Below are positions 790 to 37,915 of a stretch of 37,915 nucleotides of DNA, piece after piece. A program made the position numbers and the translations under genes. The number at the start of each line of letters is the position of its first letter. Position 1 is the first letter of the stretch. Origin of the DNA: Atractiella rhizophila. Its lineage: Eukaryota. Below the pieces are notes generated by a model, which worked only from the letters and a program-made list of their open reading frames with translations, did not search any database and had not been told where the DNA came from. The DNA is taken from NCBI GenBank assembly GCA_021432655.1, contig MU271628.1, positions 1 to 37,915 of the forward strand. The letters run 5' to 3'.

Positions 790-987
790 TGTTGAGACTA
801 GGATTCTTCCTATCACACTGGGAAGCGTACATTGCAGAAGAAACTCACCTAGGATTCTTCCTATCACACTGGGAAGCGTGAAGGGAAAAATTCCTTGTGA
901 GGGGGGTATATGTGTATTTTACATTGCGGGGCATTGCGGGGCATTCATGTGACCATAATTGTCACTGTTTGTCGCTTATCTCCAACA
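790..987 (-). repeat. Copia 5' LTR (198 bp) with an internal perfect 31-bp direct repeat (798-828, 849-879)
   Basis: TG...CA termini with imperfect inverted ends (TGTTGAGA / TCTCCAACA). CTAGGATTCTTCCTATCACACTGGGAAGCGT occurs twice, 20 bp apart. Confidence 0.85.
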
Positions 988-1921: not shown

Positions 1922-2374
1922 TGTCAGGCTTGCCCCTACACATTACCGAAATGCACCATCTGAAGTCACGTGACCTACTTTGCCTCGTCATGGGATCACG
2001 TGCCTCCCCATCGCCGCTTTGCTCATGCTCACGCTGTCCACCGCTCAGCAAACCTTACACATTTCGCTGGTCTGCACCGTCCCATTTTCGTCTTACTATC
2101 CTTTCTCACTAGTACTGTTCGTATCTCTTATTTCCGAGTATCCCTTCATTGCTTTCCTGATCTAGTTATCTTACGTGTTTCAAGAAGTAGAGTTTATGGC
2201 AGTGTCTTTACATATGTATATATACCTTGAGATGTAGTGGTGGCGACCTTAGAGTATTCTCTTAGGTTTACCTCCACTACAGGTTAGTCTTCTCATGCCA
2301 TACTATTCGCTTAGGTTTACCTCCACTACAGACGCATCGCCCGTCAGCGACCGCACATAGTGTCAGCCCTAACA
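1922..2374 (+). repeat. Gypsy LTR copy 1 (5' LTR, 453 bp)
   Basis: TGTCAGG...CCCTAACA termini. Homologous to 3508-3997, 14392-14882, the split copy at 9318-14225, and the 3' half of 8238-8685. TATATATA at 2217-2224; 28-bp direct repeat at 2255-2282 and 2304-2331. Confidence 0.92.
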
Positions 2375-2434
2375 GAAGAACACACTCTCTCCATTTCAAA
2401 ACCAAACTTAGAAACGTCGGAGGTTTGGGGAGAT

Positions 2435-2960
2435 ATGGAAACGCGCGAACTGCTGACGAGTGAAGAACACATCCATCACTTAGAAAAGATGTTCCAAACT
2501 CTACACCTAACAACCGAAAAGCAGTTCAAAAAACACGAACAAGACCTCATACCAAGTTTCAACCAACAAAATGCGCATGAAATTGCGCAACTGAGGTCCG
2601 ATGTCCAAAACACAAACGACCGAATTTTGCAATTATTGGACTCCAGACTGCCCCCTCCTAGAGACAGTGGAACCACCTCTCCTTTCTTATCGCGAACAGA
2701 CCCAATACCTCAAACTTATTCTCCTCCGTCTATATCCCAGACTGCCCAAGTAGCACCGTATGCAGGTATCAAGCTCGCTCCACCTTCAATCTTCAAAGGA
2801 GCACCCAAATTTTCCACAGCCACTCGTCGACTATTTTCAAGCACGACCAATTTACGTTCCACACCTTGACCGTTGCCAAGCGCAATTCCCGACAGAAAAA
2901 TCGAAAAGCTCTAGTTACCCTTTCCTTTACATGAAACAAGGTAGCCATGCGGAAAAACTC
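2435..2960 (+). pseudogene. gag: Ty3/Gypsy gag N-terminal remnant (frameshifted, truncated)
   Basis: METRELL...IKLAPPSIFKG, then a shifted frame QPLVDYFQARP...QFPTEKSK...YMKQGSHAEK. Resembles fungal Gypsy Gag (KLxxPxxFxG; YFxxxP; FxxExxK). Lies just after the 5' LTR. Confidence 0.75.
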
Positions 2961-3384
2961 GGACCGCTGAAAACCGAGTTTCAGGCCGACTTCCTCCAAA
3001 ACGAGCAACGAATGTTCATGGGAACAATTTTAGACGAAGTTCAGAACGCAATGCCTGCAAGACAGACCACAAGCGCATCTGCACAGAAAATGAAAAAACT
3101 TCCCTCCAGCACCGAAACCTTGGGCAACCTCAGAAACCATTCGCACATTCCCATCGCCGAAGGGTTACCACACAAAATATACGAGAAAAGAAAACTCACC
3201 TCTGATAATGAACCTCATCACAAAATTTGACATACAAACGGTAGCACCCAATCCCCCACTCCAGCACATCAAAGAAATGCCCAAAGTTCACCTCCTTCGC
3301 TTTCTCCACGTCCCAGAAAATGGTGCTCTCCTTCCTATCCTTGTTCGCCAGAACGAAGTCGAAGAGTTGCGCATCGGTCGACAT
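2950..3384 (-). pseudogene. Antisense, apparently spliced gene of unknown function inside the Gypsy element
   Basis: AAAATGTC start at 3384. The 61-codon exon MSTDAQLFDFVLANKDRKESTIFWDVEKAKEVNFGHFFDVLEWGIGCYRLYVKFCDEVHYQ ends at AG|GTGAGT (3199). The downstream phase-compatible frame reads DGNVRMVSEVAQGFGAGGKFFHFLCRCACGLSCRHCVLNFV*NCSHEHSLLVLEEVG. Possible 5'UTR intron at 3479-3421 (GTGAGT...CAG). Confidence 0.5.
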
Positions 3385-3490
3385 TTTTGCAAGAGTAGAC
3401 GGAGGGTGATGGTGATAGAACTGGAAAATTTTTCGCCCAAGCTAGCCGCAAACCTTAACTTTAAAATTCCGTGACTCACGTACACGAGTC

Positions 3491-3507
3491 AGAAATTTGG
3501 GGGGTGT
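3491..3507 (+). promoter_or_regulatory. Polypurine-tract-like element before LTR copy 2
   Basis: AGAAATTTGGGGGGTGT directly precedes TGTCAGG; a similar AGAAACTGGCGGGTGT precedes LTR copy 3 (8222-8237). Confidence 0.7.
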
Positions 3508-3997
3508 TGTCAGGCTTGCCCCTACGCATTACCGAAATGCACCATCTGAAGTCACGTGACCTACTTTACCATGCCATAGGACCACGCGCCTGCCCATCGC
3601 CGCTTTGCTCACGTTCTCGCTGATCGCCGCCTTCCCCTGTCTCACACTAATCGCCGCTCAGCAAACCTTAACCATTTCGCCAGTCTGCACCGTCTCCATT
3701 ATTGCTTTATTGTCCTTTCTCACTTGTACTGCTCAGTATGTCTTATTTCCGAGTTTTCCTTTTATTGCTTTCCTGATCTAGCTATCTTACATGTTTCAAG
3801 AAACTTATGATACAGTTTATGGCAGTGCTTTTACATATGGATATATACATCGAGATGTAGTGGTGGTGACCTCAGAGTATTCTCTTAGGTTTACCTCCAC
3901 TACAGGTTAGTCTCCTCATGCCATACTATTCTCTTAGGTTTACCTCCACTACAGACGCATCGCCTATCGGCGACCGCACATAGTGTCAGCCCTAACA
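3508..3997 (+). repeat. Gypsy LTR copy 2 (490 bp)
   Basis: TGTCAGG...CCCTAACA; perfect 28-bp direct repeat at 3878-3905 and 3927-3954; preceded by a PPT-like tract. Confidence 0.92.
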
Positions 3998-4017
3998 ATG
4001 ACTCCCCATTTCCAAAA

Positions 4018-7000
4018 TTGTGTTTTCCATCTTGGAGACAAAGATGCGCAGATGTCGCAAAAATGTATGACAAAGTCCACTTACCTTCGGCAACGGCATC
4101 CCTAGTCAGTTCGAAAACAAAACTCAGAACCGCTTTTCATCACCCATACTCCCATTGCCGACACGCCACATTGGCATTCGTGGACAGCGGGGCAACCACT
4201 TCTTTCATTTCTCCAAAATTCATTTCTGAATACAACCTACCCGTCACTCAACTCCCTTCCCCGGTGCCCATTTGCAATATCGACGGATCCCTCAATCAGG
4301 GGGGTTCCATCCATTCTGTCGCTTATTTACCCATTTCGATCGCCGCCCATCACGAAGTTTGACAATCCGCTGTGGCGGAGTTGGGGACAGTCAACATGAC
4401 TCTAGGTCATGACTGGCTAAGACACCACAACCCAGAGATTAACTGGGTGTCAGGGAAAGTTGAGTTCTCTCGTTGCCCCACTAGTTGCAACTCGGTTGAT
4501 GTGTCTACCACACGAGACCAACTTCCATCGTCCTCTGCCTCAATACGTGCCGCCATGACAAAATCGCAGAAATTGGAGAAAGACGCCGCAGTGATGAGAC
4601 CAAAGAACGTTGTCGAAATACTGACGCAAATCGCCGATTTTGCAGACATTTTCGACGACGAAAATTCAAAAGCTCGCTTCCTCCGCGACGACCTTGGGAC
4701 CATGCCATCGACCTCAAACCAGAAGCTCAACCATATGCTGGTCCCATCTACCCCTTGAAAAGAGACGAACCAGCAGCACTCGACCAATTCATTGACCCTG
4801 AACTGAGCGCTGGTCGTATACGTCCTAGCACAGGTGAACACGGCGCTTCCATCTTTTTTACACACAAAAAAGACTCACCCGAACTTCGTCCCCTTTTCGA
4901 CTATCGTAAGTTGAATGAAGCCACAATCAAGGACAAAACTCCACTCCCTATCCAAGCCGACCTCTTCTCCATGGTCTCTGATAAGAAATTTTTCAGCAAG
5001 ATTGACCTGAGAAAGGGTTTCAACAACGTTCGCATCAAAGAAGGAGACAAGCACAAAGCGGCATTTCGCACAAATCGCGGACTTTTCGAATTATTGGTGA
5101 TGTATTTCGGTCTCTGCAACTCACTGGCGATTTTTCAGGCCTTCCTGAACTCTATTTTTCGCGCGATGATCGCCGCTGCGTTCATCTTCATATACATTGA
5201 CGACACCCTCATTGCGACAGAGACCGAAGAAGAACATTGGGAATGTGTTCGATAAGTTTGTCAAATTTTGCGCGAAAATGGGCTTTATGTTAACTTACAG
5301 AAATGTGTCTGGTGTCAAAACGAAGTAGCGTATCTAGGATTGATCATTACCAGCAGAGGGATCGAACCGGATCCAGTAAAGGTTGCAGGAGTGATGGATT
5401 GGCCGGAACCGAAAAACATGAAGGAAGTCCAAATGTTCCTTGGTTTCGCTAATTTCTATCGCCGCTTTTGCGACAGATTTAGTCACATCGCAAGACCTTT
5501 ATATGAACTGACCAAAAAAGAGATTTCCTGGGTCTGGGGGGTAGATGAACGACGTTCGTTCGCCGCTTTGAAGCAGCGCATGACTTCGGCACCCGTTTCG
5601 GCACATCCCGAACAAATAGGACGATTTTTGCTCGAAGTCGATGCGTCAAAATTTCGCGACAGGCGCCGTTTTGTCACAAATGAAACTAGATGGGAAGTTT
5701 CATCCTCTCGGTTTCGTATCAAAATCGCTCGACGCTGCCCAGAGGAACTATGACACCTATGACAAAGAAATGCTCGCGATTATGCGGGGACTGCATGAAT
5801 GGAGACACCTTCTTCAAGGTACTGATGAGCGATTTCTGATTTTTGACCGATCACAAAAATCTTGAGTATTTCAGAATGCCGCAGAAGTTGAATCGCCGAC
5901 AGGCACGCTGGATCACTGAACTTGCATCTTTCAACTTCACACTTTTACACCGTCCTGGGCGGAACTCCGCAAAACCAGATGCGCTCAGTCGGCGACTGGA
6001 TCACAAACCGGCGACTTGCGACAACTTTGACGTAGTGTTACTCCCAGAACGTTTTTTCAACACGGATCGTATCACGATCAACGCGACTGGGAGCACGGTT
6101 GCGCTCACAAGACAAATGTCGCAGTTGAGTATACTGGAAGGCGTGAAAAAGGTACCCGAACGAGAAGAACAAGTAGTCAAGGCCTTGAGAGAGATCCTAG
6201 ACGAACCGGTCGACGCGATTCGCTGACGGGAGTGGCAAGAAGTCGATGGTGCTATCTATTTTCGTGGAAAACTCTACATTCCCCGCGACGACGAAATTCG
6301 CTGCTCGATTTTGCAAGACCTGCACGATTCGCAAATCGCCAGTCATCCAGGCGTAAAATCGACGACGGCTCTCATAAGAAGGTACTACTGGTGGCCAGGT
6401 TTGGCGCATTTGGTTCGCCTCTATGTCGGCGCCTGTCACACTTGCCACAGAACGAAAAACTTTCCTTCCCCACCTGTCGGGTTTTTGCAACCAAATGACA
6501 TTCCCACACGTCGCTGGCAAATTGTCAGCATGGACTTGGTTGGACCACTCCCAGAATCTGGGGGGTTTGACACGATTTTCGTAATAGTAGACAGACTCTC
6601 AAAATGCACCCATCTCATCCGCACCCATTCGACGATGGATGCAGAGGGCCTCGCAAGACTTTTTCACGACCACGTATGGAAGCTACATGGACTTTTTGAT
6701 GTCGCAATTTTCGATTGTGGAAAAGAGTTTGTGTCTAAATTCACATCTGCACTTTTTCGCCTATTGGGTATCAAAGGCTCAACATCGACAGCCTATCATC
6801 CACAAAGTGATGGCCAGACTGAACGTATGAACCAAGAAGTTGAGCAATATTTGCGCATTTTCTGCAATCACCTTCAGGATAATTGGGTGGAAGGACTTCC
6901 CAACTCAGAATTTGCGCTCAACAATCGCGTTAGTTCGACGGGCGTAACTCCATTTTCGCTCGATTGCGGTCAACATCCCCGCGTGACCTTTGAAACCATC

Positions 7001-7703
7001 TCTGACGAGGACGTTCCCGCAGCGGCGCAATTCATCGAAAAGATGCAAATCGCTGACCGGGAAGCACAAGCAGCACTTGAACAAGCAGCAGATCTCATGG
7101 CAAAACATTATGACAGAAAACGCGCACTGGCGCCCGAATATCACGTCGGCGATTTCGTCTGGTTGAGCGCGAAAAACATCAAATCAACGAGACCCGTCAA
7201 AAAGTTAGACGACAAATGGCATGGCCCTTTTCGTGTTTTGCAAGTTTTGGGTCCCCTCAACATTAAACTCGAGTTGCCATCCTCATGGACATCCAGTGTT
7301 CTATGTGGGCCTAATACGAAAAGTCAACGAAGACGACATCCCGGGCAGAGTCCAGTTGCCCAAACCACCTCCAGAATTGGTGAATGGAATTGAAGAATGG
7401 GAAGTGGAAAAAATTGTTGATGGAAAATGGTTCGGTACCCGAAATATAGTTTTCAAATATCGCGTTCGATACAAAGGGTATTCACCATCTGAAGACGAGT
7501 GGATCAACATCGCAGATCTAGAAAATTCGCAGGATGCTATAAAAGACTATCACACTGCACACCCTCTTGCAGTTCGTCCCAATTTCATATCAAACTCAGC
7601 CAAAAATCGCCCAAATGCGCGTTTCGTAACCTTCGACGAAAACGCGCTAAAGGTTCTTCCTCACTTTAAGGGGTCTAACACCCCTGTATGCCTTGCCGGG
7701 TGA
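4018..7703 (+). pseudogene. pol: Ty3/Gypsy chromovirus pol (protease-RT-RNase H-integrase-chromodomain), broken by frameshifts and stops
   Basis: Protease AFVDSGATTSFI and LGHDWL. RT LRPLFDYRKLN, KIDLRKGF, YIDD. RNase H EVDAS.../DKEMLAI/TDHKNL. Integrase HxxxxxxHPG...CHTC, SMDLVGPL, YHPQSDGQTERMNQ, WHGPF. Chromodomain EEWEVEKIVD...YRVRYKGYSPSEDEW. Split over about 8 ORFs. Confidence 0.95.
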
Positions 7704-8020
7704 AGTCCTAGTCTTTGGTACTTAGGTTAAGGCAAGGCGCCGACTTGCTCCTCAACGGGCAGGTCGGCAACTTGGTCATTGGTGAGTCCATTCATCTCCT
7801 GTCAAAGACGAATGCTCATTGTGTTCTCACACCATCACCAATGTCGCATTTACGAAAATGGCCCTCAATCGTGAGGTATCCTCCCCCTTACTTTAAGAGG
7901 ATCTACTCCTCTGCACACCTCACTGGGTGAATCCCTAGTCACATTGTTGAACATAGGTCTAGGCGAGGCGCCGGTCTGTTCAACGGACAGATCGTGATCG
8001 GTTTGTTGGTGAGTTGTCCA
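7661..8020. repeat. Diverged direct repeat (~130 bp units at 7661-7790 and 7888-8020) between pol and the 3' LTR
   Basis: By-eye alignment shows shared blocks ACTTTAAG, GGGTGAA..CCTAGTC, TAGGT..AGGC.AGGCGCCG, TCAACGG.CAG.TCG and TTGGTGAGT. Confidence 0.75.
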
Positions 8021-8237
8021 GCTCGTTTTCGCAGGATGGACACTTATTACACCAAAACAACACCTGGTCAACTTCAAAAAAATTCCTTAAATTGCAAGGT
8101 ACATAATGTCTCTTTACTCTGACGATTTCATCTCCTTTCAAGCGGCCGCTTGCACTTTAGGCATTTTTGGCAAATAGGCAAACCTCACGAAGCAGAAGTT
8201 TCTGCCTGCAGCAAGCATCACAGAAACTGGCGGGTGT

Positions 8238-8685
8238 TGTCAGGTTTGCATCTTAGGCAAATCGGCGCCTGTTCGCCTGTTCGCATTCTACACAAATCTG
8301 GGAACTGTCGCCACTCTGAGTCTCCTGTCGCCTATTTGCATGCAGTGCAAATCGGCGCCGGGTCGCCTGTTCGCCCATTCGCCCATTTGCGCCTACATCA
8401 CCACTTAGCCCAATTGTCCCTATCCTCCTCTTATTAACTCCACGTAATCCCACTATCACTTCCCCTTTTAGTTCTCTTACATGTTTCATCTGCTCTCCTC
8501 TATGCTCTGTGGCAGTGTTATTCCGCTTGTATACATAGATCGGAGAGTAGTGGAGGTGACCTTAGAGTATTCTCTTAGGTTTATCTCCAATACAGGTTAG
8601 TCTTCATGCCATATCATGCTCTTAGGTTTATCTCCACTGCAGACACATGGCCCGTCGGCGACCGCACATAATGTCAGCCCTAACA
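8238..8685 (+). repeat. Gypsy LTR copy 3 (3' LTR, 448 bp; different subfamily with a distinct U3)
   Basis: TGTCAGG...CCCTAACA, preceded by the PPT-like tract. The 3' half aligns to the other LTRs. The 5' half differs and has two GCAAATCGGCGCC...TCGCCTGTTCGC repeats. Confidence 0.88.
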
Positions 8686-9512
8686 TGAACTCCCTCAGAT
8701 TTTGAATTTCCTGGACACCAAAGTCACTTTGCCGTGTAGATCCATGTATGGATCCACACTCCTCACAATATTCTGTTAACCCATCCGTCTATACAATGTA
8801 CACTGCTGTTGCAGGCTTATGCCATAAGTCTCAAGCTGTCAACTACCCTGTCTGTGTAGTGTTGCCAGCTTTCACCTCCAGCCTTGAGCTAACTGCGACA
8901 CATTAATTGGACCATAAGTGACCTTAAGTGCCAATATCTGTGAGATCAGCTCTCCCTCCCATTCTACACTTTGGGTTAGGGTCATGTTCTGGTTCCACAG
9001 CAATTTGACCACCATCACACTGTGGACCAGGTCCAGCGTACAATATTTACCTACATATACCTGCTACGTTGCAGTTAGACAAAGTTATCCAAAGCACAAC
9101 TCTGCAACCTCACTGTATGAACCTTGCCTGTTGATGTTACTACATCATATTGTCCGATAGTACTGCTTAATCTATATCGTTTCATTATGATTTCAGCTTA
9201 GGGTTATATAAAACCCTTCACTTATCAATAAGCTGTTTGATGGGAAGAGTGACAAAACTAAAAGCCCAGAAAACGAAATTCTAGTCCTAGTCCAATGCAA
9301 AGTGAGTAAGTTACTGCTGTTAGGGCTGACACTATGTACGGTCGCCGACGGGTGATGCATCTGTAGTGGAGATAAACCTAAGGATAATATGACAGAGAAG
9401 ACTAACCTGTAGTGGAGATAAACCTAAAATACTCTAAGGTCATCACCACTACGTCTCAATTTTATACTTACACAAGTGTGTCAATGGCCTTCGTCCCTCA
9501 GCCTCCCCAACC

Positions 9513-13642: not shown

Positions 13643-14391
13643 TCCCAACCCACTCACAAGGGGCATGGCCCCTCGAACCCCACAGTGATCAGATCATGTA
13701 AGAGTTCGAGTCCAGTAGGAAGTGTATTTTTTTAAACACTTGCAGAATAAAATTTCCTTGTAGGTTCAGAAAGGGGCAAGCATATGGGTCACAATGGCAT
13801 AATTTACTTCATGCTATTGTGCATGGCGAGGGAGGTGTAAGGGCTCAAAAATGCCTCTTATGACTCATGCCAAGAACTGATGAACCTTAGAGGATAGCAT
13901 ATGCATGGATACTGCCATGAACAGTAAAGTATATCTCATGAAACATGTAGAATAGCTAGATCAGGAAAGCAACAAAGAAAATAATTGGAAATAAAATATA
14001 ATAAGTAGGACAGTTAAAATGTTGTCAAAACGAAACAGTGACAGTGCAGACCGGCGAAATGTACAAGGTTTACTGAGCAGCCATTTGTATGAGAGGAGGG
14101 AAAGCGGTGGAGAGCGCGGGTATACGCAAAGCGGCAAGGGTAGACATGAGATCCTATGAAGTAGGAAGGTAGGTCATGTGACTTAGGCTGGCGCATTTCA
14201 GTAATGTGCAGGAGCAAGCCTGACAACTGCATCGCGCGCTGATCACCAAACTCATCAACCAACCGCTCTCCCAAGCTCACTCAGCTCTCCTTTCAACTAT
14301 CGCCCACTTTCTTTATCATCAATCCTCCAACCCAAGAATACATTCACTACCTGCAGCCACACCCACCAAAAAAAATTTGTGACCTTGAATG

Positions 14392-14882
14392 TGTCAGGCT
14401 TGCCCCTACGCATTACCGAAATACACCATTTGAAGTCACGTGACCTACTTTCACCACATCATAGGATCACGTGCCTGCCCATCGCCGCTTTGCTCACGTT
14501 CGTGCTGATCGCCACCTTCCCCTATCTCACACGAATCGCCGCTCAGCAAACCTTACACATTTCGCTGGTCTGCACCGTCTCCATTATTGCTTTATTGTCC
14601 TTTCTCACTTGTACTGCTCAGTATGTCTTATTTCCGAGTATTCCCTTTATTGCTTTCCTGATCTAGCTATCTTACATGTCTCAAGAAACGTATGTTACAG
14701 TTTATGGCAGTGCTTTTACATATGTATATATGCATCGAGATGTAGTGGTGGTGACCTCAGAGTATTCTCTTAGGTTTACCTCCACTACAGGTTAGTCTCC
14801 TCATGCCATAATATTCTCTTAGGTTTACCTCCACTACAGACGCATCGCCTGTCGGCGACCGCACATAGTGTCCGCCCTAACA
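14392..14882 (+). mobile_element. Gypsy solo LTR (491 bp)
   Basis: TGTCAGG...CCCTAACA; very similar to 3508-3997; 5-bp TSD GAATG (14387-14391) / GAAGG (14883-14887) with one mismatch. Confidence 0.92.
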
Positions 14883-15925
14883 GAAGGAAGGAGATGGCAC
14901 CAGAGGGCAGTCCGATGAGTAACAACGCCTTGCTAGACATGAACTTGGGTCTCTCTTTCTTCATTCCGGAAACTTCCAATCCACGTATTCGTTTTCTCTA
15001 TGAGCTTTCAGACTTGGGCACCTACTGTATTCTGCTGAACCCAGATCTCTTATGGATACTTGCCACAAGGGTCTCATAGAGGTGGTGGAAAGGGACGGTG
15101 TGGACGTGAACGTGGCCAAAACAACACTTTTCTTCAAAACCTTTGACAAACTTTGGAAACCTTTCTCCAGTCTGAATCAGAAAGACTTTGCGATGCCATA
15201 CTTCGCTCTCTACATTATAAGTTTGCGGACATTCTCTCTGACCTTTCAGTTGCCTCCAAGTTCGGAGACAATGTTTATCCTCCACTCCACATTGAGGAGC
15301 AAGCGGAACACATCCTAACCTTTGTGGCTCACAGGACTGGCACGCACCTCAAAGTTCCATCCGCAACTCATATTGCAAGCTATTGACATCTGGTGCCTCC
15401 CCTCCACTGACTGCCCGTTCTACAGCAGTTCATGTTGGTACAGCAACCCCACAAAAGAGTCAACTTTAAACCACCAGTGGTGAAAACGGCTCAAGCAGGA
15501 TGGACAGAATTGGGCATGCCAGTGTTCTACACCTAGCATACACCGGAAGAACTGGGCCAAGAAGTAAAGAGGGAAGTGATAGACGACGTGAGATGGGAAG
15601 AGGAGAGGGAGGAGGAACCAGAGGAGGAAGAGCAGAACGTAGTGGAAGCAATCCAATACGTCGTCGAGGCAACCAAACCGGAAGATTCAAGCGTCGTATG
15701 GAGGAGCACAACTTATCTGCACAACAGATCCAAGTCCTCCATATCTCCTTCGACAAGAACCACTAGAGGATTCAGAAACGCGTTAGGGGTTATCCAAACG
15801 AGTAATGTTACATTGCGATGATGCTTGAGAAAGGCTAACAAAATACAAACCATTGGAGGCGACGACACATACTTAAGGATATGGAGATGAAGATATAAAC
15901 AATCGCGAGAAACAGGTATCAGACA

Positions 15926-18900
15926 CTACGCAAGGTACTATTGTCACTGTCAGAGCACGCCGTGGTCAAAGGGATAGCAACATAGCAACATACCTTATAA
16001 CCGTCTCGTGTACCATTGACCTTTGTCCTCTCAACATATTCCTTTTCTAACAGCGTTTCCAAGGCTCGTTTGATATCTTTGGGTTGTGGCCTAAATCTGT
16101 CCTTGAGGGATGCAATGGTTTCCTACATCAGGTTTCAATAGACCTCTTCAAAAAGGAGTAGAGAGCTGCGAACGAGAACGAGAGCCTGATACTCCATTGT
16201 CTGATGCTTTTTCATCGATCTGACATTGAATGTGATCATCAGCGATACTCATCCATTCAGAGTGGAAAGAGACCCACCGAACAATACTCGCTTGAATGGT
16301 AAGTGAACGGTCCCTCCAGATGGCTTCTTCGACATCATCATCGTCGTTCTTCTCCTTCTGCACCTCTTTCTCCTTTCCGTTTCCTGCAGGTGCTTTGATT
16401 GCTCGATCAAGCTGTACTTTCACATTCTTGAACCTTGCATCTGCATGAACGTTTCATGAATTAGATTGTTTCGATGGAGAAAGACAAGAAGCAGACCGAG
16501 ATTCAGTTTGTAGTTGTCTTCCGCCAAAATGAGAACCCGAGCGTTAACCAGTCTATCCAACGCGGTCTCGACAGATTCATTTTCACCTTCGCTGCTTCGA
16601 TTCATTCCGATCTTGTCCTTTACCTCAGCGCGGGAAAAGGTGGTCGTCGATTCGTTGTTGAATTGGAGAAGGATCGTAGCCTGTAGGAGCGAAAGAGAGT
16701 AGAGGTATTTCTTCCCTTTGGTATACAAAGTCTGAAGCTCCACTGTTGAGACGTTCCACTGCCAAAGTAGGGTCCGATTGCTTCGGGGGACAAAGATCAG
16801 CATTCACCTCTACTGCAAAAGGGGAGAAGAAATAGTCACTTGAATTTCGTCTTATAAAAGGCCGTGAACGCCTGACATGTCTCCAACAGCTCTGGTGGAA
16901 GCACCAATTGCCATTCGCATTGTTTCAGAGAGTAGGTCCAGGAGGAGAAGACGTGCATGCTCAGGCCTGTCATTCTCACGCTCGGGAACGTGTTCCACTC
17001 AGATGGGGACGCAAGAATAGACAATCCCTTCTGCCGATTCTGAAAGGTGCTCGTTAAATCTTCAGATACCTTCGAGTCTGTATTACCGCATCAGTGGATC
17101 CATAGCGCGTTGAAAATCAACGACGGACCTCGAACTAACTGGCTTATCTTCCTAGTTTCTCCTACTGTCGATAGAGTGTTCACGAGTCTGTCCTCCTCTT
17201 CATGCGAGATGCTCTGCCCTTTCACTACTCGGCGGATGTAAAACCTAGCATGATAAGCAAGGAAGGCGTCTTTGTCTTCAAGAGCATTAAAAAAGCGCAT
17301 CTATCCCGCCATGACATCATCAACACCTCGTTTCTCCCCGTTGCGTGAATAGGGAGCGGAGAGACTCACGACGCCTTCAAAGTTGACTGTCTCGCCCTGG
17401 GATTGCGGACTTGCAGCCAGATTGGTTGAGAGGAGTCCATCGACATAAACCGCTAGGAGATAGGAAGGCGACATCTCCCCTGCGGTTTCTTTGGTATTGA
17501 CCAATTTATGGAAGGCCTTCTCGACGGCCATTCCCACACGAATATCATCTATCCATTTCATAAATCAGTTCTTGTTGTTCTGAGAGACCACGTGGTGACG
17601 AACCGTTGAAGAACTCCTTGGCTAATTGCAAACAGCTCCCTCTCAATGCGAGGAAGTACTTCATCCTCTCCCCTCCTTTTCTCTCCTTCCCTTCCTTGTT
17701 CCCTACTGCAACCACCAAATTCTCCAAATCCGTTGCCATCTCCTTCCCGCCTCCATCGTCGGCCTTCATCCAAGCGTCAGTCATGTCCTTCAATCCTACA
17801 CCCAGCCAAACCGTCGTCATTCATGCCAGACTCGCTTCATTGGAAGAAAGAAAATGTAGAAACGGACTTAGTATTCCTTCCCCCTCTCCGCTCTCCAGTC
17901 TTCCCTCCAAAGGCCAAACCATGTCGTCAAAACCAGGTATTTCTACAGCACCCAGAACGATCAGTGCAGAGAGGAAATCCCCAATCTTCCTCCGGACACC
18001 CTGGAAAGAACCGAGGAACGAGAGCCTGAGGTTCTTTTCTTCTGATGTGAGTGAGCGCTCGCCATCTTCAAGGTAGGAACGCAAAGTGGTTAGCGCCGGC
18101 CCAGATGTGGACGTGGAGGGTGAGGAGGATGAAGGGTAAATGGATGAGATGGAGCCGCGGTAAGTTCCGTAGAGGTGCCTGAGGAGCGGACGTTCGAATG
18201 TGTCCGAATAAATCTCGGGGTCCAGTTCATCTGTTCTATAACGTCAGCCTAGCTTCCCTGGGAGCTGTTCTCCACAGTCCTCGTGTGTGAAGGAGAGGAA
18301 CTGACAGAGACATTCGATGAAATCTTTCAGCGCCTCCAACTCCTCCAACCTCTCCAACCTATTTCCTCCATTTACATTCAAGGCTGATTCTCGTATGGAG
18401 GAGCTTGGTGTTTTCCCATCCTTCCAAGGAGGAAGGACCAATTTACCAGTCGAGGGAAAGATGATCTCTCCGTCATTTGCGCGGACGAATTCGAGGACGG
18501 ACTCTTCGAGTTTGCCAGAGATGGCAGAGTGCAGATCTTCTCGCCAGAGGTTGGTCATCATCTATGTATTCCATTCCGTCCGTCAGATCCATCATCTGAG
18601 CCATTAGAGCTAGAGACATACCTGCAAGATCGAACGAGGAGCTTCGTATCCATAATCCTTGAATACTGGTCGGAGTGTACTCTGCCTGGATGTGTCGTCA
18701 GGAAACAATATCTGGGGTATACCCCCCACTGCGTCGGCTGCAGTTTCATCCGGCAACTCCACATTGCTCTGCACGATGACCCTATCGAGGGCGTTCGCCT
18801 TCTCGAAGACTTGACGATAGGCGGAAGTGTATGTGGTGAAGATCTGGACCGGGGAGGAAAGGGTGAGGAGGGTGGTGAGGCTGAGGGTAAGGAAGGAAGA

Positions 18901-19666
18901 GAGGCAGGTCTCAATGTGTGTGAGGAGGTGGAGCGGTCCACCATGTGTTCCATATCTGTCGGTCACTTTTGATTCGATCAGCGAATGTGCCAGCGAGGAA
19001 TGGAGAACACACGATGGGAAAGTTCCGGGGACGATGGGGACTTGGATATGTATTCTTTCACCCAACTAATGTATCCATCAGCTCTCTTCTTTTAGAACAT
19101 ACAGGATAGATGCACCTTTTGATCATATCTTCGTCAACCACAGCCTCGCGATCTTCCAACCATCCCTCCAACCGTTCCCAAACAGTCTTTGCACTCTCCG
19201 CCCTCTTCTTCTCTCCCCTCACTCTATCTTTAGCCTTCACTTCTCCCACATTTCCCACTTTAGCCACGATCGGATCGGGTTTGACGACCGTTGGCGGAGG
19301 CAAGGGGGTTCCTTTTGTATCGACACCCTTCTGCTCCTTCGTCTTCGCGTCATTCTTCGTCGCAGGCGTAGTAGCGGCGACATTGACGGGCCTGGGTTTA
19401 CGTTTCAGTGCATGCAGCAGAAACGTGGGCAGAGTGCGAAGACGTCACCCGCCATCCGTCGACGCGCTGCTGCTCTTCAACCTTTTCGCTTTGGACGCTT
19501 TGGGAGGTTTTGGAGTCTTGGTCTTGGCTTTGCTGGTTGAGTCGACACGGGTGCCTGGTGGATAGGGATTGCGGATGCCTGTCAAGTAGAATCGACGCTT
19601 CTTTCGCGCTCCACGAGGAGCGATCGTGTCGTCGTGGTACCAGTCGTTCCAGGATAGAGAGGGCAT
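15926..19666 (-). CDS. Divergent cullin-family protein (multi-exon), most like cullin-1
   Basis: Cullin homology motifs YLLAVYVDGLL, FFNALEDKDAFLAYHARFYIRRVV, LPPELLETCQAFTAFYK and NRTLLWQWNVSTVEL. The spliced C-terminus reads DRSLTIQASIVR|SMKKHQTMEYQALVL|ETIASLKDRFRPQPKDIKRALETLLEKEYVER...GYK|YLA* (Nedd8 domain, canonical YLA end, stop at 15926-15928). N-terminal exon structure is less certain. Confidence 0.88.
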
Positions 19667-20207
19667 GTCTCAGCTGCTGGCCGTGGCGTATAGTAGATGC
19701 AGCTTAGAAGAATATGTAGCTGGGAATGAGATGACAAGAGATATCAGAGAGAATCAGAAGACTTTCATACCTCGGCAACTGACGCTTCCTCGTCGCCCTC
19801 GTTCGGCCGCTGCCTAAGTTTGCACCTTTGTTCAGTGATGGAGTGGTGAACTGTCAGGTCAATGTGCCCGCGCGGTGGGTCCCTTCGTCCGCCTGGAACC
19901 TGGATTCTCGGTTCTCGCTTTACCAGTTACCACGTTCACCTGGTGCAGTGTCGAATCATTTCGGCTGTGATACTGGCAGTGGTGTTATGACGTCTGCTTG
20001 GCAATTAGGCAGTGAGCGAGGAAGGGAGACGTTTTGGTGCCGTTATCAATTTCATATGCGCGTTCCCCAATGCGACACGTGCGAATCAGACAAACAAACA
20101 ACCAAACTGAATTATCAAGGCATACATCCCGATAAACTGAACTGAGCTTAAGGCCGAAGCTACAACAATGTACCTGTTTTATCTCTACCACTGGAGCCTC
20201 ATGACTG

Positions 20208-20737
20208 ATGGATGTTTGCAGGGAAGGAGCGATGTGGGAATTGAAGTTTCCCCTGCAGTTGGACCAGGAGCCTCCGCTCTATGATTCCACTTCTCACCCC
20301 AAGTATTGCTTCGGCTGGAAAATCCCTCGTGAAGTTCTCCAGAAATACGCGACAGAGCATTTTGGAAATGGCAATGTTGAAAACAGGGTCATGGAGGACC
20401 TCCTTCCTAGGTGGTGGGCGGAGGCGGGCTTGCCGTAAGCACTTTCTCCCATTCCGACACGCCCCGCAACTCTGCTATGTGCTTATTGGTTATTCCTTGG
20501 TGACAGGAAAGTGCAGTACGGCCCGATCCTTTACCTAGGGTACAGAGCTTACGCGATGCCTGTTAGGGTGGACGTAACATCTTGACGGAGAGGCGATCCT
20601 GTCGTCCTCGCAGTGGTCGTTCGATGGGCGCAGCTGACTGAGCTTATGTAGAGGCGGCTGGAGAGAGCTTGATGAGAGTCGGAAGGAGAAGTATACGTGG
20701 TTCTACGGCGATCGAAGCTCCCGTAATTTCTTTGTGA
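20208..20737 (+). pseudogene. Small hypothetical gene or pseudogene
   Basis: The ORF MWELKFPLQLDQEPPLYDSTSHPKYCFGWKIPREVLQKYA...WWAEAGLP ends at a GTAAGC donor, with an acceptor ...GTGACAG near 20506. The second part has stops in all frames; a paralogous remnant lies at 27666-27889. Confidence 0.4.
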
Positions 20738-21017
20738 AATTTGCGTAGTTCAAGAGTGAATATAGTAACATTCGTGTGAAATCGATTAGAGTCATTTCTA
20801 GCAGGTTTGGTGAGGACAGAAAGCTGGCGGTTCGGTTTGATTTGATAAGAAGGGCAACACAGGCACAGGCGCAGGGAGAGAGTACGTTAAATGGTATAAA
20901 AATGTCGGTAAAATACGCGTAAGGCGGGACGGTTTTATTATTGAATTCCTTGAAACAGTCGATTAAGCACTTTATCCAATGATCTAGCAACTTTAAGTGT
21001 GAATGGGGGAGACGTAA

Positions 21018-27129
<6,112 letters not shown>

Positions 27130-27665
27130 TGCGCTAATGCCCCCACCTCTGATAGATACCCAACTAGACCCATGTTCATGGATTTATGAAGGCATAAAAG
27201 CAGGGTCACAAATCGAGTCACTGTCAAACTAGTACGATGAAGAAATCGTCGCTAAATTGATAAGTTGGTACCGAGAATCCTCTTCTCTTCATTAATATCG
27301 GCGTTAGGAGTCACCCATCACTCTGAAGGATGACAAGAGGACAAATACAGGCCCTTGGGATGACAGCCCTGAGCGGTCGACGAGGCTACATAGATTGTAG
27401 ATGGCGTTGCATGGATTCCGATATGGAATACGATCATCCTCTAGTGAATCTGACGGTAGACGGATGAGAGACCTTAACTCCCGCTGTGCTTCTCTCCACT
27501 TCTGTTAGGGGAAAGCAGGCAATTTCTCTTTGTGTTGATGCCGTTCCTGCCGTTTCTATCTCTCCCGTGCTCTTTGTCGTGAGCGTGGCACAGGCCTGAA
27601 ATTGACTGAATGAGGTTTAGAGGTTTACGCTTGAGCACGCTCCTTAGCTGTTCTGACGCGCGTGA

Positions 27666-27889
27666 CGCCCCGCAACTCTGCTTTGTGGTTTTGGTATTCC
27701 TTGGTGGTGCAGTCGCCCCGACCCGTTTACCTAGCGCACAGAGATTGCGGATGCCTGTTAGGCAGGACGGAACTTCTTGAAGGAGAGGCGATCCTGTCGT
27801 CCTCGCAGTGGTCGTTCGATGGGAGCAGCTGGGTGAGCTTTGTGACTGCTGGAGTGAGCTGGATGAGAGACGGACCAAAGAGAAGTATA
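27666..27889 (+). repeat. Paralogous copy of 20458-20695 (3' flank carried in the ABC tandem duplication)
   Basis: Shared blocks GCCCCGCAACTCTGCT, GATGCCTGTTAGG, GGAGAGGCGATCCTGTCGTCCTCGCAGTGGTCGTTCGATGGG and GAGAAGTATA at an offset of about 7.2 kb. Confidence 0.85.
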
Positions 27890-28288
27890 GCCTGCGAATT
27901 CCCATACCTGTCTGCTGAGGTCGCCTTCTTTGCCGTGGTTTCAAGTTGGTGATTGCGCTGCCTCTTATAATGAAGCACGAATAATGTTCCGAGCTAGACC
28001 TCCCACTTTCACCAGCGCTGAATCATCCCAGCGAGCTTCGTCTTGAGAATTGAAAGCTGGATGATGTGCATAGGTTCTGGCCTCTTCTGGTCACGGTCAC
28101 CATTGCCGTTGTCGTAATCAGCTTCATCATCCCCTACCGAAGCAGACAAAATACCCGAAGCAAACAAAAAGGCGCAATGGGGTAGAGCTGGATGGTATAA
28201 ATATCCTTGCAAGGGAAGCCAGTTTTATTTCGAATTCCTTGAAACCATCAATCGTACTTTTAGCCATCATCCAGCAGGGGGACGAAAA

Positions 28289-34484
<6,196 letters not shown>

Positions 34485-35495
34485 CCTGGCTATCTAATAC
34501 CCCTGCAAATACTCTGACCTCGATATTGCTGGTATGGCCAACTTGGAGGACGTTGGAGGATTTTGTGATTTTCAGGTCTAAAAACAACGACAGGAGGCAA
34601 GTCACCAAGTCACGAGCTTGATTGCAGCCGTGACAGTTGTTCAGTTGTTCAGTTGTTCAGCGGGTGTTCTGCGGTGTGCGGTGTCGATATGCTATCCCGC
34701 TTCTAGTTATCCTTCCCAGTACCTTCTGTACCGGGGTTAGGAGTCACGCTAGAATGTCCAAATGGATGAGGGCAGGACAGCTCCTTTTATATGGCGCAAG
34801 TGGATCGATCACTGGCCGAACGTCGAACCGCCCGTTTGCTCAGGCTGCGAAGGTCGCGAATGGCGCGTAGGGATTGGCTCTCACCTATTTATCTGTCGAG
34901 TGTGTTAGACTGCAATACGGGACAAGTACAGATTCCCGCCGTTCTTCTCTGTCCATCGATGTTTAATATGTCTTATTTCTGTATGACCATTTCTGCTGCT
35001 GCTGGATGCCCGCTGAGCTTGTCTTCCCTCTGTGCTCACAGTTGCATCCAGTTAAGTTCGGTATATGATGATTAACTCCACTCTTCCTTCTCGCGCATTC
35101 AAGTTAGGAATATTGAGACGGTGGATGTCAGGCGAACGTCAGAGCCTCCTCCAACCAATGGAACATTAGCTGACCAGCTGGCAAACTGTGCACCTACGTG
35201 CCCAAGGTGATACCACCGAAGTAACTTTGGTTTTTGGGCTGTTGGGAGTCGAACGACACTGATCGCATCATCAGCTAATCTAATTCCGAAACATGCCACA
35301 TGCCTCCCCATCCGTTCAAACATCCACCCCGTGCGTCCCCTTTACGGCCTTAAAGTTTATAGGAGCATGACTGATTGCGTGAATCCATCTTCAAGTTCTT
35401 TACTCCTGATGCAACATCCATGCCTATTGCTCTCACACTCGTAAAAGTACACACATCCGAGATTTCATGACTTCGTTGACCAAGAACAAACACGT

Positions 35496-36146
35496 TCAAA
35501 CTTGCCTGAACATCCGACTATCGATCAGCGTGATTTTGAATAAGAAGGAACAGAGCAGACACACTTCATCACTTCTCCCTCTCCCACAGCACGTTGCAGC
35601 GCCTCCGTCCTCTTCTCAAAGTCCTTCCTCATCCTCCTTCTTTGTACGAATACGCCAGCGATGAGCTATCCGTCGAACAGGCATCAGCGCTGCGTCCGAA
35701 AGCGCAGTAGATGGGACACGCACGCCAAAGATCAAGCCCAGACCCAACCCTAAACCCAGCCCGAGACCAAGCGCTAGCTTCTCGTTTCCGTCGTTCGAAG
35801 AAGCCGCAGAACTGGAGGGGGAAGAAGTGGTCCATCCAACGACGCTCCAACCGTCCCCGGCCTCAGCTACAGTGCTCCATCCCTGATCTGAGACCCCGAC
35901 GCCACTCTGAACAGCTGATACCGTGCTCCATCCCACGGAGGAGAGGTCGTTCAAAGGAGAGGTTGGCACTGGGACGACAGTGGAAGCGACGGGACTCAAA
36001 TCCCCAATTGTGGACGCTGTCACCACGCATTGATGTTAGGATGAGGATGAAGACACAAAGGCAGGCAAAAATCACTCACCGTCTTGAGCTTTCACAAGCA
36101 GGACCTGCAAGAAGAGGAGGAGGATTGAAAATGCGCGAAAGAGCAT
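35496..36146 (-). CDS. Small type-I single-pass membrane protein (signal peptide, Ser/Thr-rich ectodomain, Leu-Gly TM, basic stop-transfer)
   Basis: Spliced model: MLFRAFSILLLFLQVLLVKAQD|ASTIGDLSPVASTVVPVPTS...GWSTV...SSSAASSNDGNEKLALGLGLGLGLGLGLIFG|LIAGVFVQRRRMRKDFEKRTEALQRAVGEGEVMK|QV*. Three short GT-AG introns keep the frame; the last exon is least certain. Confidence 0.72.
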
Positions 36147-37915
36147 GATCCCGCTTCTTCAATATTTCACACCGCCAAATTTAAATTGAAATGGGCGAGT
36201 TGTGCAGCAGAGATCTCGAGAAGGGAGACCTGAAGAGAGCTTCTGAGGCAGCTTCTTCTTATACCCACCGGTCCCAATTGATAAGGTTGTTATGGCGCAA
36301 GAACGAACCTGGCGCAGTCCATCCTGTTGACAAGCGGGGATTCAAGATTTGGAAGGATGGACCGCAACAAAGTGGGGGACAAAGAGAAGAAGCTGAGCAT
36401 GTGGGAGCGCGAGGAAGTCGATTTCATGCTCTCCGCTCGCCTCGATGAATGCGGCCAGACCAGTGCTGAGAGAAATGAGCGTGCTCCACTCAGAACGTAT
36501 TGTCACCCGGATCCAACAACAAACGTAGTCGCATCTGAAACAATTTTTTCAACTAGAGGAAGTTGCAATTTCCAACATTGAGGAGCAGAATTCATTGCGC
36601 TAAGACGCAATGAGAAGCTAATCCACAAAACCTCTGAGAAGGGCATGGAGGAAAGCAAGGTAAACGAGAGGAGAGAATCTCTGTCCGACAGTTCAGACTC
36701 TGACGCTGAGTTGCCACGGTTGAGTTTTCAACAGACTATTCACTCTATCAGCCGCCTATCCTCAATGTAATGAAATCGTGCTTGCAAAACCATTTGCTTC
36801 CTTGATAGAGCCGAACATGCAAATTAATCAAGGATTGAGCAAATGTCTGATGAGCTTTTTATGCCAGCCAAATGACAAAATCACTCCAGGAGCTGAGGCC
36901 ACCGAGGCTAACAATATTATGACATGGCAATGACACTTATTGAATACAATGAGCATGCGTAACATTGATGGATGCTCGAAGTTGCTCATGTGCGGACACT
37001 GCCAAAGTAAAATCTCCACGATCCAATGGTATTTTGATGGGCATATATGTGAAGCGATTTGCTTGTGCTTGGAAGCGCCAAAACTCCAGCAACTGCTCGC
37101 AAAAATGGTCGAATGGTTGGTAGTCCATGGGATGTCGTCGATGGAACTTGAATTGCATCCATCAAAATCTGAAAGGAGGTACAAAAAATCGCATGAAAAA
37201 CAGTTGACCAACATTACAATAAGCGTCAGTAGATGAAAAGGTGCACGACCCACACGACCTTCAAGGTATGATTGATATTGTACTAGTTTGAAGCAACAGC
37301 CTACCCTGAATTTACCATGGCACCCTCTGACATAACGTTTCCAAGTTATGATACTTCAGTCAGGCTGTTCGCACAGTTGTCATCAGCGATTCCCATCTCT
37401 CAAACTTGGAAGTCAGAGGCACAAAGCTTAAGCTCGCATGTGTTCAACTTGAAGGATCGAGTTAAAATCAGCACAACACTTGATCTCAAGTTTGCAAGTG
37501 AATCGCCCCTTTGTCTGTAGCGGCATGTTACTCGTTCCTGAGGAACATGATCTAAATCTGCAACACACATCTACAACGAACTGAAAGTCAAAGAACAGGT
37601 ACGAGCTCTAGGTAATGTGCACACAGCGAAGAACATGACGGTGGTCCAGAACAGGTCTACAACATCTATCAACAAGTTGAAGCTTCTTATTGAGATCCAA
37701 TGAAGGGGTATTAAAGCGGATACAAGGAACTCCAATGAAAAATTATACAATCTGGAAGTTAACAGATATCAGTATAATCAAGTCCAAGGGAAACGATACG
37801 GTAACCTCATGTAAACCACTCCCCTGGCTTCACAAAGCTCCTCCATCTCCATCTCCCAGTCCTCCTCTTGTCTTTGATGTAAGATCGTCAACCGCCTCAA
37901 CTCTTTCATCAATCC

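Follow-up and report, generated by a model that had tools for sequence, protein, structure and literature searches.

The window analysed here is a stretch of 37,915 nucleotides (positions 1 to 37,915 of the forward strand) of contig MU271628.1 from Atractiella rhizophila (assembly GCA_021432655.1). Near its beginning, at 790–987 on the minus strand, lies the 5' LTR of a Copia family, here called family W (Table 1). The gag-type open reading frame downstream of this LTR matches PF14244 (E 0.00057, 20.1 bits, below the curated cut-off of 24.1), and an LTR 99% identical to that of the window bounds a 5.1-kb element with a Copia-like reverse transcriptase (RT). The W copy L262 is 5138 bp long, with LTRs 99.3% alike, a polypurine tract and a target duplication with one mismatch; its RT and the RT of a related element share 30% identity (E 2e-34). 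Judged by its LTR, primer site, polypurine tract, gag and RT sequences, the family W element is a Ty1/copia LTR retrotransposon. The 12-mer adjoining the LTR presumably resembles an initiator-tRNA fragment. No tRNA matching it was found in a search that intron-bearing tRNA genes escape, the sole genomic match outside LTRs being no tRNA. Within U3, a 10-nt tandem duplication at 920–945 is double in some W copies and single in others.

The stretches 1922–9460 and 13900–14890 of the window hold several Gypsy LTRs of two subfamilies, some of them head to head, along with a broken chromovirus gag-pol (RT, RNase H, integrase and chromodomain). A large direct duplication, with a spacing of ~7.3 kb and 76–99% likeness, spans 21100–35000, and eight open reading frames tested from 18388–37355 gave no Pfam match.

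Table 1. Positions of the Copia family W and Gypsy features within the window.
Feature	Position	Strand	Remarks
Copia family W 5' LTR	790–987	−	198 bp; ends TG...CA
TATA-like box CATATA	907–912	−	33 nt ahead of repeat 1; putative function
Pentamer upstream of hairpin	897–901	−	pairs with donor +1 to +5 (848–844)
Hairpin 5' arm	875–895	−	895–880 ahead of repeat 1 (putative U3); 879–875 within repeat 1
Hairpin 3' arm	851–870	−	within repeat 1
Repeat 1	849–879	−	31 nt; putative first exon; opens at C|A step
Splice-donor-like hexamer GTGAGT	843–848	−	same hexamer starts a predicted host tubulin intron
Intron-like unit, GT...AG	798–848	−	51 nt; 20-nt spacer and repeat 2; splicing predicted
Spacer hexamer common to families	831–836	−	candidate 3'-end or branch signal; motif defined after the fact
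Repeat 2	798–828	−	31 nt, identical to repeat 1; TAG at end; putative strand-transfer acceptor
LTR tail	790–797	−	8 nt; putative U5
Primer-binding-site-like 12-mer	778–789	−	common to many Copia families
Copia gag start	1–285	−	runs off contig end
Gypsy (chromovirus) 5' LTR with same module	1922–2374	+	arm 2233–2250; self-primer 2251–2260
Gypsy repeat 1	2261–2282	+	
Gypsy intron-like unit	2283–2331	+	
Gypsy repeat 2	2310–2331	+	

A U3-dependent hairpin at repeat 1 of family W

The initial annotation had described a hairpin of about 18 bp with two G-U wobbles, and folding bore this out. On the minus strand, 895–851 forms 18 pairs, with G-U at 888/857 and 877/868, at −20.4 kcal/mol (z −5.14), a value reached by none of 200 shuffles; the opposite strand gave −15.8 kcal/mol (z −2.72, 3/200 shuffles as good). 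As this 45-mer was picked by eye, its z-score is inflated through selection, and internal controls therefore weigh more. The region around repeat 2, which holds the same repeat without the upstream arm, had a z of 0.04, with 107/200 shuffles as good.

The CATATA box (912–907) lies, as annotated, 11 nt ahead of the 5' arm (895) and 33 nt ahead of repeat 1. The 3' arm had been placed within repeat 1 with its end 2 nt before the donor. This is correct for the core, but the stem itself does not end there: in a longer fold it continues past a 2x2 loop, and 901–897 pairs with 848–844, so that the donor itself is covered by five more pairs. On the 5' side of the stem, only 901–880 precedes repeat 1; the inner five nucleotides, 879–875, are inside the repeat. 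Because the outer arm is mostly upstream of the putative start site, the full stem would be possible at the RNA 3' end only.

An alignment of family W stems (30 loci, less four partial and one duplicate) contained 25 copies, in which 429 of 443 core stem cells were paired; 11 cells were changed with the pair kept and 14 broke it. The copies being closely related, covariation within family W is neutral and uninformative. The pentamer-donor pairing was kept in 79/80 cells of the 16 W copies that retain the spacer. The sense-strand preference put forward in the initial annotation was found in 22/25 W copies; as a general rule it failed, only 5/9 families having it, and we rejected strand bias as general evidence. 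No Rfam covariance model matched the hairpin/LTR region (600–2500) at E up to 1.

We computed the cost of opening each element of the structure. With U3 present, repeat 1 of family W requires 24.1 kcal/mol and repeat 2 only 10.7 kcal/mol, a gap reached by 0/100 upstream shuffles, whereas in an RNA beginning at the putative start site, without U3, the order is reversed (9.8 versus 12.5 kcal/mol). The donor costs 5.4 kcal/mol with upstream bases versus 1.4 kcal/mol without them, a modest effect matched by 8/100 upstream shuffles. According to these computations, the upstream arm would selectively close repeat 1 while repeat 2 remains open, and the U3-dependent hairpin would mask the donor in family W.

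The repeated sequence bounds an intron-like unit

Introns of 47–63 nt were predicted at 11/14 actin and tubulin junctions of the host, by a donor-biased score and with allelic copies included, and among the predicted host donors are the hexamers found in LTR families W and D. The host has the look of a fungus rich in introns. In the nine LTR families that carry such a unit, its length ranges from 49 to 74 nt, close to that of the predicted host introns, and all nine units end in AG exactly at the repeat end. With its GT...AG ends and its host-like donor and length, the unit bears the marks of a spliceosomal intron and is a predicted intron. Branch-point candidates were seen by eye, unscored, in the spacers of families A–D.

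RNA contigs of four runs with small word shares were compared with 1–2460. They cover parts of 12–810 only, leaving 821–2460 uncovered, so that the unit is not spanned; one of them (554–810) stops inside repeat 2. There were no splice joints in these contigs, which speak neither for nor against splicing of the uncovered unit.

A TATA-like hexamer stands 32–36 nt ahead of repeat 1 in six of the nine families (none in A, B or C), and repeat 1 opens at a pyrimidine-purine step in 7/8 Copia types. The TATA distance, together with the analogy with the Gypsy family, suggests that Copia transcription starts at repeat 1.

The module recurs in unlinked LTR families

The genome searched comprises 51 Mb in 1998 contigs and gave 39 matches; own-genome Copia ends were represented by 37 primer-site matches, 30 of them with loci. 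The module was detected as repeat-GT...repeat-AG within 9 nt of the LTR end. It is present in 15 of these 30 Copia 5' LTR ends, the others being one-repeat ends (4/30), one end broken by Ns and 10 ends of families E and F without the module (L031, L033, L038 and relatives); family E has a TATA-like box ~50 nt from the LTR end. The own-genome Gypsy family also carries the module. Among the matches listed, two of 121 metagenome ends contained it (L142 and L175, both preceding frames that are gag-like by eye), and it occurred in 0/3020 shuffles. In two matching viral contigs the module was not seen by eye. The initial annotation had proposed conservation in related Copia families as a check, and stem, donor and spacing indeed recur in further Copia families.

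By blastn, only A/B/C are linked together and D1 with D2, so that six LTR types remain unlinked: W, A/B/C, D, Gypsy, L142 and L175. Identity of the RT to the C2 query is 30% for W and 44% for D. Given the unlinked LTR types and this RT divergence, the design appears to span deep lineages, and both convergence and shared descent could account for it. An RT tree of 15/20 loci (five were left out for want of a sufficient RT match) groups D with A/B/C against W with E/F; being unrooted and carrying a long-branch warning, it was rejected as an arbiter of convergence. The Copia LTR had been said to share the geometry of the Gypsy LTR independently and without sequence similarity. The geometry and the lack of similarity stand, blastn giving no match; independence is no more than a possibility, in view of the unrooted tree and of a likeness between spacers.

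This likeness takes two forms. A hexamer occurs shortly before repeat 2 in 8/8 own-genome spacers; under a strict pattern it is found in 6/10, against a shuffle mean of 0.22 and a maximum of 3 in 20,000, for a motif defined after the fact and families that are not independent. Moreover, the Gypsy and Copia-B spacers match in 10/11 bases (1/300 shuffles, 8 comparisons). These likenesses could reflect common ancestry or a common host signal.

In L175, repeat 2 extends to the LTR end (last 110 nt examined), and AATAAA stands in the spacer 9 nt ahead of repeat 2, in the position that the shared hexamer takes in own-genome families; the putative intron of L175 may carry a 3'-end signal.

A different layout was observed in the metagenome Copia clusters L061, L070 and L074 (16, 11 and 7 ends), which have a strong donor and no repeat. 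Their donor is 48–53 nt before the first G of the primer site, and an AG spans the LTR/primer-site border. Among 55 metagenome cluster representatives, all four such donors are 48–63 nt from the primer-site G. This layout looks like a second design, in which a predicted intron would be spliceable only at the 5' LTR.

Donor closure and stem covariation differ among families

We examined how well the 28 nt ahead of repeat 1 pair with it. Pairing as good was reached by none of 300 shuffles in A, B, C and Gypsy, by 6 in W and D2, 10 in L142 and 17 in D1; in L175 it was no better than in shuffles (96/300). With U3 present, repeat 1 costs more to open than repeat 2 in 9/9 families. The number of upstream shuffles (of 100) reaching the gap was 0 in B and C, 2 in L142, 4 in A and L175, 9 in D1 and Gypsy, and 15 in D2. 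For donor closure the corresponding numbers were 0 in A, B and C, 4 in Gypsy, 5 in D1 and 8 in L142, while L175 (25/100) and D2 (78/100) did no better than shuffles. In 7/9 families the computed cost of opening the donor was higher by at least 1.4 kcal/mol with upstream bases; by computation, the donor is thus less accessible in their presence, as in foamy viruses.

The stem sequences differ between lineages. Families A/B/C have an unchanged 12-bp stem with differing loops and spacers, and the extension over the donor has C-G in A versus U-A in B/C at donor +4. Family D shows a C-G to G-C swap in L255, and D1 and D2 differ by a matched insertion on both stem arms; all three differences are compensatory. 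Fold-back repair can mimic covariation, and could have done so in A/B/C and D.

The A/B/C stems are perfect inverted repeats without strand bias, and their 19–22-nt pyrimidine loop leaves the start of repeat 1 unpaired. Such a loop, along with antisense pairing that is as strong or stronger in 4/9 families, would suit a hairpin with a different function (in dimerisation or packaging, in a pause of the RT at the R/U3 border or as a promoter structure at the DNA level), whether or not an intron is rebuilt. As every stem reaches or crosses the donor and its extension changes in step with the donor sequence, we regard this as very unlikely.

Repeat 2 of the Gypsy family tracks repeat 1 up to a sharp boundary

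In the Gypsy family, which has a chromodomain integrase, 12/46 LTR ends precede a 10-mer whose complement is found at positions −32 to −23 ahead of the donor. By this sequence the Gypsy neighbour is a self-priming element of the Tf1/sushi type, from which its probable RNA 5' end can be deduced. In the available text on Tf1, such a site pairs with the first RNA bases, which are then cleaved off as primer (PMC7175516, PMC4600332). Because the self-primer layout is Tf1-like, the Gypsy arm would lie upstream of the start and the strong-stop template would run from −22. Copying of spliced RNA, followed by a jump of the DNA onto repeat 2, predicts that repeat 2 is refreshed only from the template 5' end onward.

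In 33 two-repeat Gypsy copies, repeat 2 equals repeat 1 in 31–33 copies at each position from −22 to −1. Alleles are mirrored: C/C in 25 copies and T/T in 8 at −12, a linkage that probably represents one event inherited by a subfamily, and C/C in one copy at −10. At −32 to −23, a stretch of the length of the primer, repeat 1 shows no variation and repeat 2 varies independently. All four bases occur at −23 among 29 copies of one subfamily; no other site in −99 to −1 is as variable, and only 5 of 422 sites, this one included, have four alleles. The RT of Tf1 is described, in the part of the source available, as adding untemplated bases at template ends (PMC3185545). The boundary and the hot spot at the joint are as expected if spliced RNA was copied with a jump onto repeat 2.

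Similar tracking was seen in Copia elements. Each loop difference among Copia A, B and C appears in both repeats, with diverging spacers, and in L003 and L008 (family W) the two bases before repeat 2 are those before repeat 1. In family A (L035, L043, L049 and L057), one position of repeats 1/2 reads C/C, T/T, C/T and T/C; mixed alleles are expected if the jump onto repeat 2 sometimes occurs between two co-packaged RNAs. L036, L042 and L230 have additional partial copies of the repeat end (11–26 nt) directly before the LTR tail, possibly from off-register jumps.

One-repeat LTRs and loss of the unit

One-repeat LTRs make up 14/29 distinct W LTRs and 14 of the first 100 listed of 306 Gypsy LTRs. 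Copy counts in general are inflated by duplicates, as several host genes are present twice and some LTR copies have flanks in common (L020/L026, L295/L297). Since one-repeat LTRs are frequent, either any guard of the unit is leaky or DNA-level deletion is common. Both LTRs were seen in eight module-bearing elements: four have the unit in both, two in neither (one of these, L263, lacks a target duplication) and two at the 5' end only. The last two, L262 and L280, have near-identical LTRs, an asymmetry that simple reverse transcription does not yield and that needs later deletion, intermolecular transfer or assembly collapse. In a tree of 23 W LTRs (17/20 inner branches open), we counted 9 changes versus a shuffled mean of 7.7; one-repeat copies showed no clustering in this tree, which does not fix the number of losses. 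One-repeat copies also fit precise splicing, which is indistinguishable from deletion.

LTRs with one, two and three repeats coexist, and among solo LTRs with target duplications four have one repeat, three have two and one has three, as unequal crossover predicts. Part of the unit loss is therefore DNA-level. The entire module could then be a by-product: a tandem repeat churned by unequal crossover or template switching, its quasi-palindromes perfected by fold-back repair, with no role for GT/AG or hairpin. The perfect, strand-neutral inverted repeats of A/B/C agree with this, as would covariation mimicked by such repair. However, nothing would make DNA exchange halt at −22 in Gypsy, where the repeat likeness runs on to −28. 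Nor does it readily account for a 12-bp A/B/C stem that is kept through changes of loop and spacer, or for LTRs without blastn similarity that have their parts in an identical order. We hold this origin to be distinctly unlikely.

A model for an intron rebuilt at every copying cycle

We consider it fairly probable that the hairpin is a position-dependent switch serving an intron that is rebuilt at every copying cycle. The layout, its recurrence, the computed selective pairing and the Gypsy boundary with its hot spot are findings; the model further posits splicing, the 3' end, the Copia start site and the main job of the hairpin. Transcription would begin at repeat 1, giving an RNA 5' end without the outer arm, with an open donor from which the 51-nt unit would be spliced; in the spliced 5' end, repeat 1 would directly precede the LTR tail and primer site. 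In the copy at the RNA 3' end, which includes the upstream arm, that arm is computed to pair over repeat 1 and donor with repeat 2 left open, and this copy would stay unspliced and be cleaved in or right after repeat 2. Minus-strand strong-stop DNA (tail and repeat 1) would then jump onto repeat 2, a step supported by the Gypsy sequences, so that the new LTR would consist of U3, repeat 1, spacer, a fresh repeat 1 copy and tail. A jump onto repeat 1 instead would lose the unit. The benefit might be a 5' intron, given an intron-rich host in which mRNA accumulation may depend on introns.

L175 gives a hint from one case. Its AG needs the first base of the primer site and exists at the 5' LTR only, and its arm is the weakest. 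Because that base completes the AG, removal of the unit would restore the exact LTR end. A weak arm along with a 5'-only AG favours blocking of 3' splicing as the job of the hairpin.

Alternatively, the module might be a foamy-virus-like 3'-end switch without splicing. U1 bound to the open donor of the 5' LTR would prevent premature polyadenylation, and the hairpin would keep U1 off the 3' LTR; slippage of the RT from repeat 2 back to repeat 1, ahead of the strand transfer, would preserve the likeness of the repeats. This has a precedent in the accessible text of PMC3694450; the donor pairing covaries in A/B/C, the L175 spacer has AATAAA in the position of the shared hexamer, and RT slippage could also produce the tracked boundary. 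It leaves unexplained, however, why AG falls exactly at the repeat end in all nine units, why unit lengths are near those of predicted host introns, and why in L175 the AG is completed by the primer site such that removal restores the LTR end. We judge it rather unlikely.

Regarding the rebuilt intron, we lean, more guardedly, towards one design for the diverged Copia and the self-priming Gypsy elements. In it, the intron ends in a second copy of the first exon, a U3-dependent hairpin closes exon 1 and donor exclusively at the RNA 3' end, the intron may carry a 3'-end signal, and minus-strand transfer rebuilds the intron from spliced RNA in each cycle.

Significance and comparison with known systems

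An intron removed from the RNA that an LTR element copies is expected to be lost from the element. Some basidiomycetes are reported to need introns, in a gene-dependent manner, for mRNA accumulation (PMC3744415, available in part), and the combination of this need with intron loss on copying is a trap for retrotransposons. If our model is true, the module is a natural escape from this trap via ordinary splicing and ordinary strand transfer, and an example of intron DNA that is recreated, not lost, by reverse transcription. Moreover, the start site would be readable from DNA as the 5' edge of the tracked repeat, the one- and three-repeat LTR variants would be explained, and exact RNA ends could be predicted.

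The foamy virus LTR is a close parallel. As described in the accessible sections of Schrom et al. (2013; PMC3694450), its donor is inside R, and bases preceding the start refold the 3' LTR and hide the donor from U1; the module likewise hides a donor by a U3-dependent fold, here computed. There, the effect is on poly(A) site choice, independent of splicing, whereas we propose a splicing role, and those sections describe no short LTR intron or duplicated exon, both of which the module is predicted to have.

The Gypsy family resembles Tf1, Tf2 and Tj1 in its chromodomain integrase and in a primer site that complements part of its own LTR, over 10 nt versus 11 in Tf1 (PMC7175516, PMC4600332). The available portions of these texts mention no LTR intron or repeat, and the Copia element falls outside this parallel.

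Penelope and Chlamys elements retain a 5' UTR intron in or across the terminal repeat, the meaning of which is called unknown by the authors (10.1101/2021.04.23.441226). They do not belong to the LTR retrotransposons, and the portion of the source available mentions neither an exon-duplicating repeat nor a masking hairpin.

With fungal Ty1/copia elements, family W shares short LTRs, a primer site adjoining the LTR and gag-pol, and the available text has no occurrence of "intron" or "splic" (PMC5445492). The conserved hairpin site that replaces the primer site in GalEa is a different structure (PMC5445492).

A description of the module was not found in a literature survey of titles and abstract openings that covered few subscription papers and neither Repbase nor supplements. 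In split-intron retroviral vectors, reverse transcription shifts splice signals between LTRs so that a working intron arises in the next generation; these vectors are engineered, act in a single round, have the donor in U3 and do not duplicate an exon. The feature is real, and to the U3-dependent hiding of a donor already known from foamy virus it adds a duplicated exon.
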